Shown here piece after piece: positions 2,993 to 36,848 of a stretch of 64,000 nt of DNA. The notes below the pieces were generated by a model. It did no database searches. It saw only the letters and a program-made list of their open reading frames with translations, and had not been told where the DNA came from. How positions within the stretch are numbered: position 1 is the first letter of the stretch; every line of letters begins with the position of its first letter. Source of the stretch: Camelus dromedarius (Eukaryota). A program made the position numbers and the translations under genes. The stretch is taken from the NCBI RefSeq assembly GCF_036321535.1, contig NC_087436.1, positions 18,664,001 through 18,728,000 on the forward strand. Direction: 5' to 3'.

Positions 2993-4503
2993 AGAGAGAG
3001 ATACTGAGGAAGCCAAGTGTTGAGTTCATGTAATATTTCATGAAGAGAAAATCAAAAACTTTTGAAAAGGAAAATAATTAAAGTTCTATAGCTTATGATA
3101 AACATTTTAAATTAATTACACATTTTCAATTTTTGCCTCATAACTGGGTTCTGAAATCCTGCTTTAAGTTCAAATAGAAAACACATGTATGTATTCATGC
3201 TATTCTGTGGAAAGAGACGGTATGTGATTTTTAAATTTTTATTTGTGGTCTAATTTCCCCAATTTTGCAAACAGTGTCCTGGAGTCATTTTGAGATGAGT
3301 TTTCCTTGTAATGCTCAAAATCCTAATGACTGTTCTCGTCTTTATTGTTAGACCACTGATGTTCCTGGTAGGCTAGTATAATTTCACCATAGTTTGAGTG
3401 TATTTACTGGAAACTGAGGTTATTGTTCCTCTTAAACCTAATCATGTCTTCATCTGACAAAACTTTCCATTTAAAGTCAGATTTCAGAATATTATTGCCA
3501 AGAATAGTTTTGTTTCTATGGACAACACATAGAAGAAAAAGAAAAAAAAAAGGCTAAGGAAAGTGCTTTCCCTGGGCTAGGAATAAAGACATTCCAAAAC
3601 ATCTGGCACAGATCATGTAACTTCATTTGAATTTTAGTTCATTTGGATTCTTGCAGCAATTTCCCCCTCACAACCACTAGACCAAATATGGGATGTCTGA
3701 TTCCCTTCAGCTTTAGTTGTTTTGGTACCAAACAGTCCCCAGAGCAAGGTGATCACCCTAACAGTAGGTGGGATCTTCCTCCCCTACTCAGGCTCTAACT
3801 TTGCCTGATTGTCTTTGGGTCCTTATTGCCTGGCTCTGTGGCGGACACACAGCGGGCACTCCATAAATGTAAACTGAAGCAGTGAAGGAAGCAACAGTGA
3901 AACAGGAGGCCTGTCCTAAACAGTTTTAGTAACAGTGCTCAACGAGGTCACCCCTGGCTGGCTATCATGTGCACCCCGTTATCTTGAAGTTGCTCAGATA
4001 ACCGCGGGGAGCCAGCACGTCATCCAGACAGTCAAAATTAAATTGGCCCTCCCCGTTTCAAGCCATACTGTGGCTATCTGGCTTCTGAACAGCATCACAT
4101 TGAAAAGGTAACTGAAACTGAAGATATATATTTATCTTAAGTACTTTTTGGGCTCTGTAGGTCTCACCCTGGAAACTGACTCAGGAAAATCTACTGATCT
4201 TTTCCCAGATTGCCCATCCACTCTGCAAGCTCAGGGCTCGCAGGAGAATCTGATTCATGAAAGACCATGACTTTGAAGAATCATCCCTGAAATACTATTT
4301 TGGTAACAATTAAGTTAGAAAATAAGTGCAACATTTAACAAATAAAATTGTACAATGTTACCGAGTTTTAAGATAGCAGTAACTGCTCTCAGGAAAAACA
4401 AAGACTAAAATTCCAAAGGTCAGAAAAGTCTGCAGTAACTCTCCTAACTGTGGAATCAGAGCATACATTCAGACCTGCAAATGCATCTGTGGTTACTTCC
4501 TAC

Positions 4504-4923
4504 CTTAAATACATTGATAGGGAGATCAATGACCACATAGATAAGGTCTCCAAGGGCAAGGCTGGCTATCAGCGCGTTGGGGCCATTCCTCATACACTTG
4601 TTCTGGTAAATGATCCTGAGCAGGGTCGCATTCCCCACCATTCCCACGATGAAAATAGTACATGATATCACAGTGTTAATGTATTTGAAAGCGGAAGTAA
4701 TCTTCGTCTGCTGTGGGCAATAGTTGTGCATGGAACTGTTGCTGGGGAGGGCCAGATTCGTGGGTCGATGAGTTGTGACCACGAAGCTGAGTTCTGTCCC
4801 ACGAAAAGTGGTGAAATCGTCCACGTGCGTACTGAGATTGGTGCTGTAGCTCTCAGGATTATCACCGATTACACATCCAACCAGCGCCACCCAAAAGGAC
4901 AGCCTGAGGCAAAAGGCTTCCAT
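4504..4923 (-). CDS. EDNRA: Endothelin receptor type A, first coding exon (aa 1-140: signal peptide, N-terminal ectodomain, TM1-TM2)
   Basis: Translation [31 protein letters not shown]...[75 protein letters not shown] is recognisably ETA. ATG at 4923 is in strong context (aagATGg). 420 nt followed by a phase-0 donor AAG|GTAGGA at 4504/4503. The remaining exons lie left of the window. Confidence 0.98.
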
Positions 4924-4993
4924 CTTGATGCACATTTGAGGAAATGTCTCTTACTATGTTGCTCTTACACCCTCCTTTTTTTTGTTTTCCCAC
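4924..4993 (-). other. EDNRA: EDNRA exon 2 5'UTR portion (70 nt) with splice acceptor
   Basis: Minus strand shows a polypyrimidine tract and tttccag|GTGGGAAAAC, with AG at 4995-4994. Confidence 0.88.
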
Positions 4994-6380: not shown

Positions 6381-8579
6381 TCGCTTTCTTGCACCTGAAG
6401 TGTTTTAACAATATCTACAGATTTCTGAAGAAGCAATAGACTTGGGAGGGTGGTTAGACATTTTCAAAAGATCGTTTTGTTTTTTTGACTTGTTTTGTTT
6501 TGTTTTAGTCACTTGCAGAGAGCAAGTGGTTCTTCTTGTCCAGAAAGTCTAGGTTTCTATTTTAATCCTTAAATAAAAGCTGCTGGGAAATTGAGGGAGG
6601 TTGGCAGTAACACAATAATCAAAGGTAAATAAAAGTGGTTCTTCTCATTTTAATATTTTATACGTTTTCTTTTCTGTGAGTTTTTGTGAACCTTTCAATG
6701 AAGGTCATCAGCTCATTTATGATATAGTGTGTGTGTATGATGAATACACCCAGGTCATAATTCAAGTTTTAAGAATTATGTCCTTTTTAGTCTATTCACG
6801 ATTGATAACCACTTTTCAGAATTTTGATAATTATCTTGGTTATCAGTAAAACTTCGGGCTTAGTCAATATATGGATGAAAGATGATTTGTTCAAGTTGTA
6901 TAGAACGTCTAAAGTAAATATAAGGTGCAAATACTGCAGACTTTTGCCTTCCCCAGAGACTTTCCCCAGGAACCTGAATTAATAATAACTTTTTACATAT
7001 AGTAGTAACTTATTATATATGTATTTGTTATCTGACCTGAGATTTACAACTTTAGGTAGTCAGGGGGCAATATCCCCATTCACTCATGAGGAAACTGAAG
7101 CTTGAAGAAGTTAAGTCATGTTTTTGTGGCCAAGAAGTGGCAGGACAGGTATAATGCCTCACTTTACTTGGCTCATGGGACTCGATTCAGTCTGATTAAA
7201 TGATTAAAATATCAGTTTTTCTAAGTTCAGGGCATCCTGGGTATACACTTCTGCCTAGACTTACTTATAAGTAGTTTTTTCCCACTTTTTACAGTTTGGA
7301 GTATCTGACCAAATATTAGTAGACCTACGAAATGACACTATTTCCATTCTGCAGTGGAGACCAGGGCTCTAAGAACAAAGCATACTCTAATTCTTCTGTT
7401 GAAGTCAGAGATGGAAAAAAGGAAATCTTTCAATATCTTGGGCTGTTTAATGACTGAAGCTTCCTAGTTTCCGCTGAGAATGAACCTTCAGAAGTAGTTT
7501 TTTTTCATAAGAAATAAGAGAGAGATGGCCTTTTCCAGAAATGAGATGGCTCTTTGCCCATTACAGTCTGCTAGGTGGATATTTAGGGAACTGACCTAGC
7601 TATCTTGAGTGTACACTACTCTCAACAGTACCACTCGTGTTTGAACATCAGCATGTTGGTTTGTTTGGTCAGCTGATTACTGCGGAGCTGAGGAGTCCAA
7701 AGCTATGGGTTCTTATCAAAGTGTGAGCCAGCTACCATGAAAAGCACCTCCTCCAACAATGACGCCACCCCAGAAGTCACTTCTGATGACATCTGTCTCA
7801 GCTCACCATGCATATGAAGCTGAAGACCTAAGGGATACTTGGCAAAGGCACATGGCTGCCCTACCATCATTGACTGAGAAATACAAAACTAAAGGAAAGA
7901 ACCCTCTCAAACGCAAGTTCCTCCAAGGATGAGTCTGTAGCTCATTTCCATGGATCTAAGCCACGCGGTGCTTCAGAACATGAGTCATAATCGGTCATAA
8001 CTCTAGTGAAGCATCTCAGGTTCAGACCTGAAGGACATGGTTTATATATCGAGCATTCTTCATATTTGGGGTCTAAGGATTTGCTGGAGTTCAAAAGCTA
8101 TTATTAAGCAAAAGGACTGAATCCTTCCACTTTAACCATTTAACATCTTTGACTCAGGATCAAAGTTCACCTGTAATTAGTAATTTGGAAATTCCAACCT
8201 GACCAAGATGGCACAAGTTTAGAGGAGCTAATTTACACAAAATGATTGCCAAGCTGTTTCTCAACTAGTTAACCAAAACAGAGGGAGTTGGGGGGGTCAT
8301 TAATATCTACAAATAAACTAGCAGCTTTTAAATAAGTTTTCGTTGGTTTGGTTTTGTTTGGTGGCCTTTGCTTGCTGGGTGAGAAATTAGTACCTCTCCT
8401 TACAGATGTCTGACTTTACTACGCCTCCCAGCCCACCCCCTCCGCCGCCAAGTCTATCCCGGAACGCCATTAGGATGGGGTTAACAGAGACTGATTATCT
8501 GGAAATAGCCCTTGTTTTCTGCAAGTGAAAAGGCAACAAGTGTCCTTTAAAGGAGAGCACTTAACAAAACGCTCAGACC

Positions 8580-9730
8580 TCCACGGGCCGGTTTCCAAAC
8601 TAGCTGCACTGGGGGTTTTCCCAAACACAGGAGTCCCTCACACCCAGTGCCCCTGGCTACCCTCGGCATGCCCCGGGTCTGCGGGGAGGAGAAGCAGGCG
8701 GGTCAGAAAAGGCTGCGGGGCAAAGCCCACAAGTGGGCTTCGGAGCCAGCGACAAGCGCGTGATGCTCCACAAAGTTCTCGTACGCCCGAGAAGGGAGAC
8801 CCAGGGAGAACTGTGGGTTTTCCTTTGACTGCAGATCCGACGCCCGCCTCGGGAGACTGAGAGACTTTCAGACAGATCCCCAAACCCCAAACGTTCCCAG
8901 AAGGCACCCCGCCGAGGAAGGCGCCCTCGCCTCCACGCGCCTTTGGGCAGGTGGTGCCAGCCCGGGTGTAGGAGGTGCCGGGCGCCACGGAGCTCGCGTC
9001 TCCTCCAGACCCAGGGGCCCGCCGGCGTCTCCCCCACCCCGCTTGGGTCCCCGGAAAGAAAGAGTCGCACCGACCGTGGAGCCTGGCGGGCGCAGACGGC
9101 TGCTCGGTGGTCGGCGCGCGGCGCCCGGGCGAGAGGAAGCCGAGCTGGCGAGGGTGGGTGGCGAGGGTCCCGGCTCCGGTGCGGCGGCGGCCCCCAGCTG
9201 CACCGCTGCCTCCGCTTCGGAAAACTTCCTGGGCACGGCTGCTCAGGGGAGGTCCTCCCGGAGCCGCCAGCCTCCGGGCACCGGGTGGGATGGAGCCTCT
9301 CCACCTCCGGTCCGCAATCGCCCGACCAAAGGCAGGACTGCGCGCCCGCACGCGCGAGTGTTCGCAAGAAAAAGAAAACTCCAGAGGAGCACGCCTCCCG
9401 TCTGTCCTCCCCGTCTCCTCCAAAAGCTCAGACCTACTCCAGTCTAGGGCGGCAAGAATGTTCTAACCTTCCAGCCCTTCTGGGCTGCAGCCACTATAAA
9501 GCACCAGGCTGCCGCCCCCTCCCCGGCCCTGAAGGGCTGGAGTCTTTTTAACTATTTCCTTCCTGAAGCGAAGGTGGTGGTGAGAGGGCGGTAATGGAGG
9601 GATGTGGGTGGTTTAACCGAGGAAACTCAAAACTTAGGGAGGCCTTGGAGAGGAACCCTTTCCTTCTCAGTAAGTGCGGGCAAATTCGATCTGGACGGAG
9701 CGACTGCAGACAGAGCCAGGGGCCAATCTT
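8580..9730. promoter_or_regulatory. EDNRA promoter CpG island
   Basis: Dense CpG/GC stretch in an AT-rich background. GC box (gccgccccc, ~9510-9518) and TATA-like CTATAAA at 9494-9500 lie just upstream of exon 1. Confidence 0.9.
9075..9465 (-). other. EDNRA: EDNRA non-coding exon 1 (5' boundary approximate)
   Basis: GC-rich minus-strand sequence (GGAGACGGGGAGGACAGAC...GAGTTTTCTTTTT...CTCCACG) resembles the recalled human EDNRA leader. Donor CCACG|GTCGGT at 9075/9074. Confidence 0.8.
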
Positions 9731-10129
9731 GGTTTCTCTGCGTTCCCTGCCTCTTTGCTTGGCTTCTGCGCTCCCTCTTAACCTTATATCAAGTTAAAGA
9801 GCCAAGGTGGACAGCAGTTTACTGGATTAAGGACGTTTTACTTCTGTCTTGTCCCTTGAAGCCAGCACCCCAAGGCTACATACTACTGGCCCGGGGCAAA
9901 GCAGGAGCCCCTGGAGAGTCTGTGGAAGGGTCCAGCGTGTGGCTTCTAGAAACGTTGATTCCTCAAGAAATCCAAACAGGGAGGGTGCAGATGCTGCAGA
10001 AGATGGGCCTCAAGGCCTTTATATGATAGAGATTTCTATCCTAAATGGGGCCATGAGAGAGGAGATGAGGGATAAAGGCCATTGCCTGTGATATTTGAGA
10101 AAAAAAATCGGGGGCTCCTTGAAAAGAAA

Positions 10130-30925: not shown

Positions 30926-33761
30926 TTTTCCAGTATTAGAATTATCAAAACTTAAAAATTGTTCTCAGTCCCACCATCTCAGTAGATTATATTGTATTTT
31001 AATATTTCTATCTAGCAAGCCAAACTCTTTTACATATATTTTAAACCTACCAAAGCAAGATGGAATTAGATTTATGAACTTTATGAGATTGTAGTACTCT
31101 TACAACCTATGTTAAAAAGGAAAGTCTTTTTCTGATGCACAGAGGTTCACATTTATAGAGCCTTGCTTTTTTTGTCTGTTTTCACTTATCTCTTTCTACT
31201 GTCTTGGTTTTCCTTTTTCCTCTCTTGTTATCAAATGTATCATTTACACCTGTTACATGTTGGCTTAATTGTACATATTAATGTTGGCTTCATCCCAAAT
31301 GTGAGAGTCAAGAAGTCTTTAGAACAACTTTGCCTTGCATTTTGGAACATCCTGTTCAGCCTGTCATTAGCGTATAGCCACGGTATTGGGGTAGTTCCCA
31401 TAAAATGTTACAACAGTGAATTCGGCATACTTCTCAGCAACTTCTGTTTCTAAGAAGTGGTTGCTGCCTGTGGCTGAACACCGTGGACTTTAGTGGAGGT
31501 ACTAGCACTTTCTCTCAAGATCGGGTGTCTCAAGATCGTGTATTTTGAGAGTTCAAAGGACCTGGACCTTTTCTTTCTTCTTGAGAAATGGACAGTCCCT
31601 TTTCCACCCTGGCTGGAGCAAGAACTCCTGCACGCCCGTAAGAATAGAGTCCTTTACTTTTACTTGACTTGGATAATTATAATCAGTGGTTGTCCTTAAG
31701 GGTTTGTCTTAAAAGAGTAAAGTTTATACTTCTAGAGGAAAAGATCCCACAGACATCTGAACTTCCTTAAACAATAAACCTAACACTCAGGGATCGCCCT
31801 CTGTCCCCTTCCCCTCCCCCTTCCTTGCCTGAACGTCCCCTGTTTCCACAGCTGGAGCTACTTGCTGCCCTCCCCTCCCCAAACTCCACGTGGTCAAGGT
31901 TTGGAAATCTTAGCCTTGCAGAGGTGGGAGTGCAGAAGGCACTCTGAGATTCTCTTCCTTTATCTATAAAAATGAGAAAAGAAAACTACCCTGCCTTCCT
32001 CACAAGGCACATGAGAATGGAATGTGGAAGTGTGTATGGAAGAGCTTTAAACAGGATTTACTCTTTCATGACAGTCTGTGAAGGGGGGACAGTCAGAGCT
32101 GACTACGGCACTTGACTGGGGAAGATTCAGTGGCAGAGTCAGCAGAGTCTTCTTGCAAGAGTAAGGAGTTCGAGGCAATTCTGGGATAGTGACTTCACCT
32201 CGATTCTTGCTAAAGTATCCCCTTCTCTGGACCCTCCTGTCCTTTTTGACTGCTCTATGTCATTTCTCTAAGGACATCTTCTCCCCTGTCTTTAGGGTCT
32301 GAAGACACTGTGCTACATCACAGAACCCCTGGGCCTTCAGAAAAACTGTTTTAGCAACTGAACCTGGACCTGTGAAACTGTCCCTCTTTGGAACTGCTTC
32401 TGTTTCTTTCCATCCTATTCCACTTTAACACTTATTTGGGCACGTGATGTGTTAGGTGCTGGAAAAATTTCACAGAGTAAATTTTTGAGTCAGAGCTCAC
32501 AAATAATGAGAAAGATACACGAGGAAGCCCATCCTGTGATGAAGCCTCTAATTTGGGTAACGATGATGTGTTCTGAAAGCACAGAGGAGAGATTCAATTC
32601 TCAGTGATCAGAGGCATGATGAAAAGTAAACTGAGGAGACTTGTGGAAGATACGGATTTTTGATGGGTCTATACCCGGGAGTGTGTTGGATTGATTCAAA
32701 GGGAGGGATGAATTTGAGAAGATGGGATGCAAGACAGGGTAGGTGAGGGTAGCAGAAGATAGGTCTAGAATGTTGAAAAGTGGGTAGGAGGCCAAGTTGT
32801 AGAAGGGGCATATTTTCACTCTATATTTTTACCTCATATGAATGAACTCACCAGTTTGACTTCCTGAATTTACATTGACTATTGGAAGCTAAATCATTTT
32901 AATCATATACTATTCTTATTCTTCCTATGAAATCCAATTAGGATAGAATTTGGTCCACGGAATCTTTCAAAGTCTGCATCAAGTGAGGAAATAAACCAAT
33001 GCTTTTATAGATTTAAATAACTGTGCTTTTGCTTAACTTTTCTCATCAATAGCTGAGAGTAACTGGTAACCGGATTTTAGTGGTATCTTGTGGAATAAGA
33101 TGTAGAGAATGTGGCTTGTAATGTTACAAGTGGGACTCCGTCTCTGACCAGATACTTAGAAAAACAAAGCCCCAAAGATTATGCCAAAGCAAAGGCAAAA
33201 ATCTGCAGTTGGATTGTAAGTTGGATATTAGTACCTGAGATTCACAAAGTTCATGGTCAGACTTTGAAATAAGTGATAAGGGAAATCAGTCCAGAAACCT
33301 GCTCCCTGCATATTTAATATTGTGAGGAGGGAGGATTTCTATAGATTTATAGCTTAATTTTTTCTCGGATAACACCACTGCAGGCTATATTCATCAGCTC
33401 TGAATATAAAATTAGGAAAAGTTAAATGCAGAAGGAACTTTCTAGTGGAAGTAAAAACATACTGTTCATAGACCATGAAGGTCATAGTCTGAAACAATTT
33501 TTTTTCCCCAAAAGATGAGCAAATTCCCTTCTCTGCCATATACCAAAGCCAGGGGAGAACTCAAGTTGGGTTTAGAAGGCCGGAAAGGCTCTTTTAATGA
33601 GAACGCTTTTCTTCTTTCAGCTTGGTTTTTTTTTTTTTTTGGAGATGCTCAGGGTAGTTGACAAATAACTCATTTATTTTCCAGATTTCCTGAGTGACCA
33701 TATCATCAGCAAAATGTAATTCCAATTCTCAGTGTCTTGGGTGGGCTTTGACAAGGGAGTG

Positions 33762-34076
33762 TGTAGGGAAAACAGAGTCAATCAGGCTCCCTCGCAGGTC
33801 GACGGCTGCCCAGTGATCCAGCAGTATTACCCCGCATGCGCGGTACCCATGTGTTGTTACGAAATGACGACTTGGTTGCGCAGGCGCAGTAGTTAGCCCA
33901 AGTAGTACACGTAGTTGGCTAGGTGCCACTTTTGTGTGCCTTGCTGTGTGAGGGCGGCGGGCCTTTCTGCCTCTTCGCAAAAAAGTCAAGTCAGAGATAC
34001 CTACGGCGGCTCGGCCAGTGCTCTTCAGTCTGCCGGAATCGTGAACCTGCCAGGCCTGGAACGCCTGCAGTAGAAC
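33762..34076 (+). mobile_element. LTR-like segment of a class III ERV (LTR18/ERV-S-like); boundaries approximate
   Basis: Lies directly 5' of a PBS and gag remnant. Blocks gcgcaggcgca, ttggctaggtgccacttttgt, agtgctcttcag and tagaac resemble the recalled LTR18 layout. Confidence 0.6.
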
Positions 34077-34094
34077 TGGCGCGGTCAGCCGGGT
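34077..34094 (+). other. Degenerate tRNA-Ser primer-binding site
   Basis: TGGCGCGGTCAGCCGGGT vs TGGCGTAGTCGGCAGGAT (complement of the tRNA-Ser 3' end): 13/18 identical, continuing with TCG. It sits 15 nt before the gag ATG. Confidence 0.7.
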
Positions 34095-34109
34095 TCGCCG
34101 CGGACAGGT

Positions 34110-34707
34110 ATGGAACCCTCTGCACCGCCGGGGGTGGATTTGAGTGGTGGCCCCCGACTCTGTGTGGTACTCGGTGGTGAGCCTTCTTTCCACTTGGGGC
34201 CGGCCTCAGGACTGGCCGGAGGTGGGTGGGCCCCCTGCCCAAGCGGAAAAGGCCCCGCAGAAGGCGAGGGAGGCCCTAGGGAAGCGGCGTGCCCGCAGGG
34301 CGGCCGGCCGCCGTGCGACGGGTGTTCCTCACAGCCCTGCGGCTGAACCCGGAACCTCGCTGGGACGCGCGGCCACGGTTCAGGAGTCACAGGGAAACGG
34401 AGAGGCTGCGGAAGCCCGCATGCGAGCCCTGGAGGAAGGCTTGCGGACCCCGGAGAGCCAACCGTGGCCCCCACCAGCGGTGGTAAACGCCTCTGAAGGA
34501 GAAGAGCCACAACTACGGGCCTGAGCAGTGGTGACGCGGAAGATGAAGCAGCAGCAGCCGCCGCCGGTGGCCCCGGGAGGACAGGCTCCTGCCCCCGGAG
34601 ATGGCTGAGCCCACGGCGTACCGCCCGTCTACTCAGAACTGGTAGAGCTGGGCAAGCAGTTCCACAGCCCAAAGCCTGGGGAGCTGTTGGCGGCCTGGCT
34701 GTTACGC
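34110..34707 (+). pseudogene. Frameshifted, truncated gag N-terminus of an ERV-S/HERV18-like (ERV-L-related) retrovirus
   Basis: Across frames: MEPSAP / WWPP / DSVWYSVVSLLSTWG..DWPEVGGPPAQAEKA / VFLTALR / EARMRALEE / EGEEPQLRA*AVVTRKMKQQQP / EPTAYRP / ELVELGKQFHSPKPGELLAAWLLR. These blocks are colinear with recalled HERV-S gag motifs (WYPVA..., AFLTALR, EEEPPLRARPVV, ELGKQ.RQ.PGEPL.AW.LR). TGA stops at 34522 and 34606. Confidence 0.8.
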
Positions 34708-35078
34708 ACGCGGGATAATATTGCTGAATCACTGGACGCAGACGTCTGGCGAGAAAGCCTGACTGACTCCATTTTCCCGTTTGTGGAAGAGAAAGGCCAT
34801 GGCTTTCCACTATCCCCTTGTCCTCGAGCAATCCCAGTGCTGATGCTCGGTGTCCCAGTCTGAAAGCTCACAGCGGCTTTGTGATTGTCAACAAGCTGAA
34901 GTGGGACAGGTGACAGGTGGCCCCCACAGTTGAGTCTACCTTTATTACAGCAACACTCTCATTCCGCTCTCCGCTGGTCTAGCTGTTGAGTTGGAGGCAA
35001 GTAGCCAGAAAGGGAGCTGGTAGGGAGGCCCCAAATACTAGGCACCTGGAGCTAAAGCTTTTATAGCCCCTTTCCCCC

Positions 35079-35603
35079 TGTGATGGGTAATTTTCTGTGT
35101 CAACATGGCTAGGCTAGGGTACCCAGTTATTTGGTCAAACAGTCTAGATATTTCTGTGAAGGTATTTTTCAGATCTGACATTTAAACCAATAGCCTTTGA
35201 GTAAAGTCGATTTCTCTGTAATGTGAGTGGGTCTCATCCAATCAGTTGAAGATCTTAAGAGCCTGAGGTCCCCCCGAAGAAGGAGGAATTTTGCCTCCAG
35301 ATTGCCTACAGACTCAAAACTCTAGTATCAGCTCTCCCTGGGGTTCCAGCCGGCCTGGCTTGTGGATTCATTCATGCTAGCCCTCACAGTCACATAAGTA
35401 AATTCCTCAAAAGAAATCCTCTCTCTCCCTCTGATAACTGATAATTAATTGATTAATATATTATAAAAACATAAATTTTATATATAATTCTCCCTTCCTT
35501 CCTTCCTCCCTCCTTTCCTTCCTTCCTTCCTTCCATCCATCCATCTGTATTTATATATATATTGCCTATTGGTTCTGTTTCTCTGGAGAACCCTGACTAA
35601 TAC
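35079..35603 (+). mobile_element. MLT2 (ERV-L) solo LTR
   Basis: tgtgatgggtaattttctgtgtcaac...ctcatccaatcagttgaa...ggttctgtttctctggagaaccctgactaatac. Confidence 0.92.
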
Positions 35604-36366: not shown

Positions 36367-36848
36367 GTATATTAGTCAGGGTTCTCCAGAGAAACGCAAC
36401 CAGTAGGAGGATAGATAGACAGACAGACAGACAGACAGATAGATATAAGAGGAGATTATCATAGGAATTGTTCCATGTGGTTCTGCTGGGTCAGTCTCAT
36501 AATCTGCTGTCTGCAAGCTGGAGAACTAGGAAAGCCAGTGCTTTAATTCTGTCTGAGTCCTAAGGCCTGGGGATCAGGAGGCTGAGGTCCAGATGTAGGA
36601 GAAAATGGATGCTTAAGCAAAATAAGAGAATTTGTCTTTCTTCCACCTTTCTGTTCTATTCAAACCCTCAGTGGATCAGATGATGCCCGCCTGCAGGGGT
36701 GAGGGTGAGCTGCTTCACTCAGTTCTACTGATTCAAATGATAATCGATTCTGGAAAAATTCCCAGGGACACACCCAGAAATGATGTTTTCCTAGCTCTCT
36801 GGACATCCCTTCGTCCAGTCAGGTTGACACATAAAAGTAACCACCATA
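36367..36848 (-). mobile_element. MLT2 (ERV-L) solo LTR with (GACA/GATA)n
   Basis: tattagtcagggttctccagagaaac...gttgacacataaaagtaaccacca. Confidence 0.9.

Follow-up and report, generated by a model that had tools for sequence, protein, structure and literature searches.

Results

An orphan CpG island upstream of EDNRA

EDNRA occupies the minus strand of the window, the 64-kb stretch of DNA that was analysed as a whole; its exon at 4456-4950 (-) matches endothelin receptor A (PDB 8hcq, E 2.6e-72). With the criteria of >200 bp, GC >50% and a CpG observed/expected ratio (o/e) >0.6, a 200-bp scan detected two real islands: the EDNRA promoter at 8391-9748, in three runs, and a second island at 33680-34908 (1229 bp; GC 0.61; CpG o/e 0.72), which qualifies as a CpG island. 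Stricter definitions ask for at least 500 bp, a GC content of at least 55% and an o/e of at least 0.65, values that the second island also exceeds. A third run in the scan, of 266 bp with 11 CpGs, lies inside an EDNRA coding exon and barely passed the threshold; this marginal patch aside, the second island is, as originally predicted, the sole CpG-dense block outside the EDNRA promoter. The segment 33750-34850 has a GC content of 0.63 and 82 CpGs at an o/e of 0.75, and the corresponding values of the whole window are 0.39 for GC and 0.27 for o/e.

The island proper, 33762-34778, consists wholly of one old retroviral remnant, comprising a long terminal repeat (LTR), a primer-binding site (PBS), part of gag and an inverted LTR piece, and CpG density falls sharply at both edges of this element. 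The element lies on the plus strand and points away from EDNRA, and its LTR starts ~24.0 kb from the EDNRA promoter island, in agreement with the predicted distance of ~24 kb. The statement that the other old repeats have lost their CpGs also holds: among nine old-repeat segments nearby, eight have a CpG o/e of 0.00-0.23 or 0.34, and one has 0.55 (4 CpGs in 216 bp). No host coding exon near the island was recognised among the long ORFs of the window, and an Rfam search of the locus returned 0 matches.

LTR and primer-binding site

The LTR (33762..34069, +; 308 bp; CpG o/e 0.81) begins with TG and ends with CA, and by eye its first 14 bases resemble the LTR start of a published HERV-S sequence; in the relative P0010, an ORF runs through the equivalent of the LTR end. 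Seven bases past the LTR end, at 34077..34094 (+), lies a decayed PBS, probably of the tRNA-Ser type. The predicted 13/18 match was reproduced against a HERV-S row of PBS sequences in Table S1 of PMC4724089, but a His-type row is matched equally well (13/18), and a score of at least 13 is also attained by three more 18-mers of the window that begin with TGG; an assignment to tRNA-Ser from sequence alone would thus be weak. It is the position of the site together with the adjoining gag, and not its sequence, that identifies it as a PBS. The element shows the order LTR-PBS-gag with a TG...CA LTR that is expected of a class III, HERV-S-related endogenous retrovirus (ERV), and no direct second LTR was found in the 64-kb window.

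Three further observations concern these signals. An 18-mer at 32131-32148 (+) scores 15/18 against a HERV-S PBS row and so exceeds the real PBS; no retroviral context was seen around it, and the match is probably due to chance. Similar purine runs, resembling a polypurine tract, precede both LTR starts, at 33750-33761 (+), just 5' of the LTR, and at 34822-34807 (-). Flanked by a tract-like run on its 5' side and by a PBS on its 3' side, the left LTR has the arrangement expected of a middle LTR in a tandem provirus.

A broken class III gag

The segment 34110..34704 (+; GC 0.68; CpG o/e 0.68) is a broken 5' remnant of a gag of the class III, HERV-S-like type, with its first ~200 codons; the predicted ATG at 34110 is present. 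When the gag frame, with X at stops, was searched with phmmer against 1.84 billion proteins (E<=0.001), five proteins matched, all unnamed, the best being 59% identical (E 4.5e-17). The matches are colinear over 34162-34284 (49-56% identity) and 34408-34704 (53%), and the similarity stops near 34704. These relatives were found by the exhaustive HMMER search alone, word-index protein searches having returned nothing, whether at near or at longer lengths. Pfam gave no family for the four gag pieces, the Atlas gave no usable match for the window's own ORF, and inspection by eye of the 40 long ORFs in the window revealed no pol-like frame; env was not recognised either.

The link to HERV-S runs through P0007, one of these five proteins, which aligns pairwise with the window frame at 34% identity over 149 columns (E 2e-9). 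Three of four short P0007 motifs were found in List S3 of PMC4724089, and within that list only in the HERV-S Gag; the Atlas clusters nearest to P0007, which serve as a lead only, are Gag families. By its motifs, P0007 is a HERV-S-type protein. The gag blocks of the window likewise follow, by eye, the order of the HERV-S Gag in List S3 of PMC4724089. The original assignment to a class III, ERV-S-like gag is thereby upheld, and since identity to P0007 is only 34%, as against 54-59% for the unnamed relatives, the element would represent a sister family and not HERV-S itself. A search for sister copies at the DNA level yielded 0 loci in viral contigs and, in metagenome contigs, 10 loci with 0 homologues among them (9 without a blastn hit and 1 with a 61-base hit around the seed); the CpG content of these 10 loci is mostly of the bacterial type.

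The frame is broken at several points, as had been claimed, although not quite in the way described. Of the two TGA stops reported, the one at 34522-34524 lies in the frame that matches the relatives. A 12-residue scan placed most blocks in one frame, but two relatives match another frame at 34592-34615; since the TGA at 34606 falls within this stretch, two frame changes (near 34590-34636, supported by two relatives) describe it better than a stop does. Up to five frame changes are present, those near 34140 and 34285-34400 being based on weak scores and by-eye comparison. A 24-base GC-rich near-palindrome (92%) at 34294-34317 coincides with the CpG peak of the island and lies close to a frame change.

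The suggestion that the remnant is a formerly domesticated gag gene, comparable to Fv1 and decayed later, could draw on the start ATG and an open stretch of 126 codons. However, the similarity ends at about the point where the capsid-like part would begin, so that an intact frame with a capsid domain is not what the locus holds, and the frame carries one stop besides its frame changes. No protein on record corresponds to the 126-codon stretch, and neither Pfam nor the Atlas gave a match for it; moreover, long open stretches are frequent in GC-rich DNA, and the EDNRA island itself has six of more than 100 codons. We consider this origin extremely improbable.

An inverted LTR copy closes the island

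Immediately after gag, at 34705..34778 (-), lies a 79% identical copy of LTR bases 1-75 in inverted orientation (blastn E 7.6e-11), which is new here and absent from the earlier reading of the locus. Both the gag similarity and the island end at this copy. The two arms differ at 15 of 74 sites (Kimura two-parameter distance, K2P, 0.245; ~21% diverged), which corresponds at assumed rates to ~25-135 million years, if the arms were once identical. The provirus was likely cut there, either by an inversion with deletion or by a second, related LTR inserted in antisense. The inverted repeat does not extend significantly into the flanks (329 of 500 shuffles were as good). An interpretation of the inverted arm as gag was rejected, because neither arm has a gag-like protein score (580 and 609 of 1000 shuffles scored as well). 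RNA folding, run without a shuffle control, pairs both arms; we give this structure no weight, as transcription would likely start downstream of the left arm and there is no sign that one transcript spans both.

Beyond the inverted copy, 34779..35078 (-) is a GC-rich but CpG-poor block (o/e 0.24) with a TATA-like box at 35065 and an AATAAA at 34946; it is possibly another LTR piece, and it does not significantly resemble the remainder of the first LTR (82 of 500 shuffles were as good). This block adjoins the island yet is CpG-depleted, marking a sharp boundary in methylation history. It is followed at 35079..35603 (+) by an old LTR, which we take to be MLT2-like and which, with a CpG o/e of 0.19, serves as a flanking control outside the island. 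A second LTR at 36370-36846 (-), presumably also MLT2-like, lies 770 bases from it in the opposite orientation and is likewise CpG-depleted. Farther away, two inverted repeat pairs (54640-54930/56812-57099 and 55474-55569/56693-56787) are 76% identical, lie ~2 kb apart and are probably pieces of old DNA transposons.

Retention and gain of CpGs

The two LTR arms offer a test of whether CpGs were retained or are new. Four CpGs are shared between the arms and two are unshared (4/6), whereas the 20 other repeat pairs of the window (4033 aligned bases) have one shared CpG and 35 unshared (1/36); the difference is significant (Fisher p=0.0006), with an arm test of 6 CpG sites and a control set in which some pairs overlap and are AT-rich L1 ends. 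The repeat names used for the window (MLT2, MER3, MaLR and L1) are our own assumed assignments. In the best-matched control pair (76% identical; GC 0.46-0.48), none of eight CpGs is shared and seven face TpG or CpA. That CpGs are common to arms ~21% diverged and almost never to other pairs is the strongest indication that ancestral CpGs were kept and not just recently made, and the central claim of the original prediction, a degraded remnant that kept its CpGs, is thus supported. Decay was not fully avoided: TpG+CpA o/e is 1.17-1.22 in the remnant versus 0.92 in the EDNRA island, and at four sites the window has TpG or CpA where a relative fits CpG, the reverse being the case at seven.

In mammals, a kept CpG implies low germline methylation. 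CpG retention is read as a record of such low methylation in the excerpted text of PMC5793779 as well. The retention of CpGs despite the age of the element therefore points to a long escape from germline methylation, and we regard germline hypomethylation of the element as quite probable.

These data also bear on the proposal that the locus is an ordinary, methylated and silent remnant of an unusually GC- and CpG-rich family, in which case this copy would not be special. Young LTRs easily reach island values, according to the extract of PMC12582260. However, the present element is old, as its frame changes and arm divergence attest, nearby repeat pairs of equal divergence retain almost none of their CpGs, and CpG density does not fade but drops at the element edges; we hold this reading to be improbable.

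GC-biased gene conversion is a further candidate: the island might have been built mainly by conversion at a long-lived recombination hotspot, with many of its CpGs new. At non-CpG sites, comparison with the two closest non-overlapping relatives gave 17 weak-to-strong and 8 strong-to-weak differences (p=0.11); when changes were polarised by two agreeing relatives, the counts were 7 versus 2 (p=0.18), with six of the seven outside CpG. A cruder split gave 15:12 (p=0.70). The counts thus lean in the direction that the original prediction had allowed for, but they come from protein alignments and not from DNA, no pooled count is significant (p=0.11, 0.18 and 0.065), and only one of five single-relative tests fell below 0.05 (P0006, 0.039). 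Conversion as the dominant cause was weakened once the substitutions were counted; the CpGs common to both arms point to ancestral CpGs, and conversion at such sites would itself presume low methylation. We consider conversion unlikely as the main builder of the island, and a modest contribution on top of retention is plausible.

Motifs and transcripts

A cluster of predicted binding sites lies in the LTR at 33832..33887 (+), with NRF1-type sites at 33832 and 33878, a C/EBP-type site at 33857 and a CRE half site at 33865, according to motif definitions that we assume for these factors. One of the NRF1-type sites is an exact match, the only one in 64 kb. Two NRF1-type sites at one mismatch or fewer were reached by 2 of 2000 LTR shuffles and the C/EBP-type site by 73 of 2000; the CRE half site (806 of 2000) is at chance level. 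On the basis of these motifs, the LTR may be predicted to bind NRF1/bZIP factors and to act as a weak promoter directed away from EDNRA, with the chances about evenly balanced.

Of the 24 runs listed, six are of RNA type and contain part of 33300-35100: the share of the segment's words is 0.81 and 0.67 in two runs from the reproductive tract and 0.16-0.33 in the other four, which are no evidence of expression. The two best runs cover ~40% of a genome (if the size column counts contig letters; DNA runs have ~2,000 million), and their signal would then be explained by DNA carry-over or by pervasive transcription. A widely expressed transcript from the locus is not suggested.

Discussion

We lean, by a modest degree, towards the following explanation as a whole: the 5' end of a HERV-S-like provirus persists as an orphan CpG island, its LTR bound by NRF1 and unmethylated in the male germ line. 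An ancient class III provirus related to HERV-S has been broken, and the LTR, the PBS and part of gag are left. Methylation-sensitive factors such as NRF1 would bind the LTR, which would act as a weak promoter held open and unmethylated in the male germ line, and its CpGs would then escape decay and form the island. Modest GC-biased conversion, invited by the hypomethylation, may have been added on top. Excerpts of several publications are consistent with individual steps: methylation sensitivity is described for NRF1 and CREB1 (PMC9729108); NRF1 occupies unmethylated retrotransposon promoters in the male germ cells of mice (PMC12420836); NRF1, AP-1/CREB and C/EBP motifs accompany activity in LTR18A, an LTR family of HERV-S (PMC9712623); many retrotransposons are low in methylation in sperm (PMC5793779); and hypomethylated regions attract GC-biased conversion (PMC11161765). 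NRF1 is known to be excluded by methylation; that its binding would in turn protect a site from methylation is an inference.

CpG retention needs only low germline methylation; hence neither a host function nor a link to EDNRA is required, and no selected host function is needed to explain the island. The element could nevertheless have been co-opted, as a selected enhancer or orphan-island tether, to regulate EDNRA. Apart from the CpG-island promoter, the 64 kb contain no island but this one; the motif cluster of the element is intact, and a crude CTCF-like match occurs once within the island and nowhere between island and promoter; in addition, orphan-island turnover tracks enhancer change across mammals, as stated in the excerpt of PMC11170920. 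However, the LTR points away from EDNRA and the retention of CpGs is explained without selection, which leaves co-option a rather doubtful proposition. A fuller version, in which a lineage-specific co-opted island contacts and tunes the EDNRA promoter, is held open by NRF1 and stays GC-rich through biased conversion, seems to us to have a similarly small chance of being right. As regards the original prediction as a whole, the class III HERV-S-like identity and the CpG retention have stood, and the domesticated gag has not.

Orphan islands derived from transposable elements are a known class, and the element is another example of it. Its value lies in its being a clean single-locus case of an old retroviral remnant that became an orphan CpG island and that carries its own control, a pair of LTR copies which have diverged and yet have CpGs in common. 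As LTR-derived islands are a small minority, the locus is a useful case on which to test whether islands arise by retention or by biased conversion. Its importance would grow if the element regulates EDNRA in the lineage; if that co-option is true, a major vascular and craniofacial receptor would have a regulatory island built from an ERV.

Fv1 and other domesticated ERV-L gag genes are of class III gag origin, an origin common to the present element, which differs from Fv1 in having no intact frame and no capsid domain. With HERV-S (HERV18/HERVL18 with LTR18; HSERVIII supergroup, class III), as represented in the tables and lists of PMC4724089, it shares colinear Gag N-terminal blocks, a similar LTR start, a similar LTR length (about 300-360 bp in the HERV-S table rows) and a TGG-starting PBS that matches the HERV-S row at 13/18. 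Unlike the human rows and consensus in that source, which look CpG-decayed, the element is CpG-rich, and it has no recognised pol or env by which it could be classified. ERV-S families have been reported from other mammals, for example the horse (extract of PMC5682256). Among literature on EDNRA or camelid ERVL, no paper on the element was found in the titles and abstract openings of mostly open-access articles.

LTR18A, as described in PMC9712623, in whose main text neither 'CpG' nor 'methylation' occurs, has C/EBP-, CRE/AP-1- and NRF1-type motifs in common with our LTR; its activity was seen by reporter assay in human cells, whereas that of the element is predicted from motifs. The closest parallel in kind is offered by transposon-derived orphan islands and sperm hypomethylated regions, which, in the excerpted texts of PMC11170920, PMC12582260 and PMC5793779, are likewise non-promoter, element-derived and CpG-retaining; element insertion and biased conversion are both proposed as sources of such islands in the first of these extracts. 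LTRs make up 1.3% of human island sequence according to the extract of PMC12582260, whereas at the present locus the retroviral element, gag included, constitutes the whole island.
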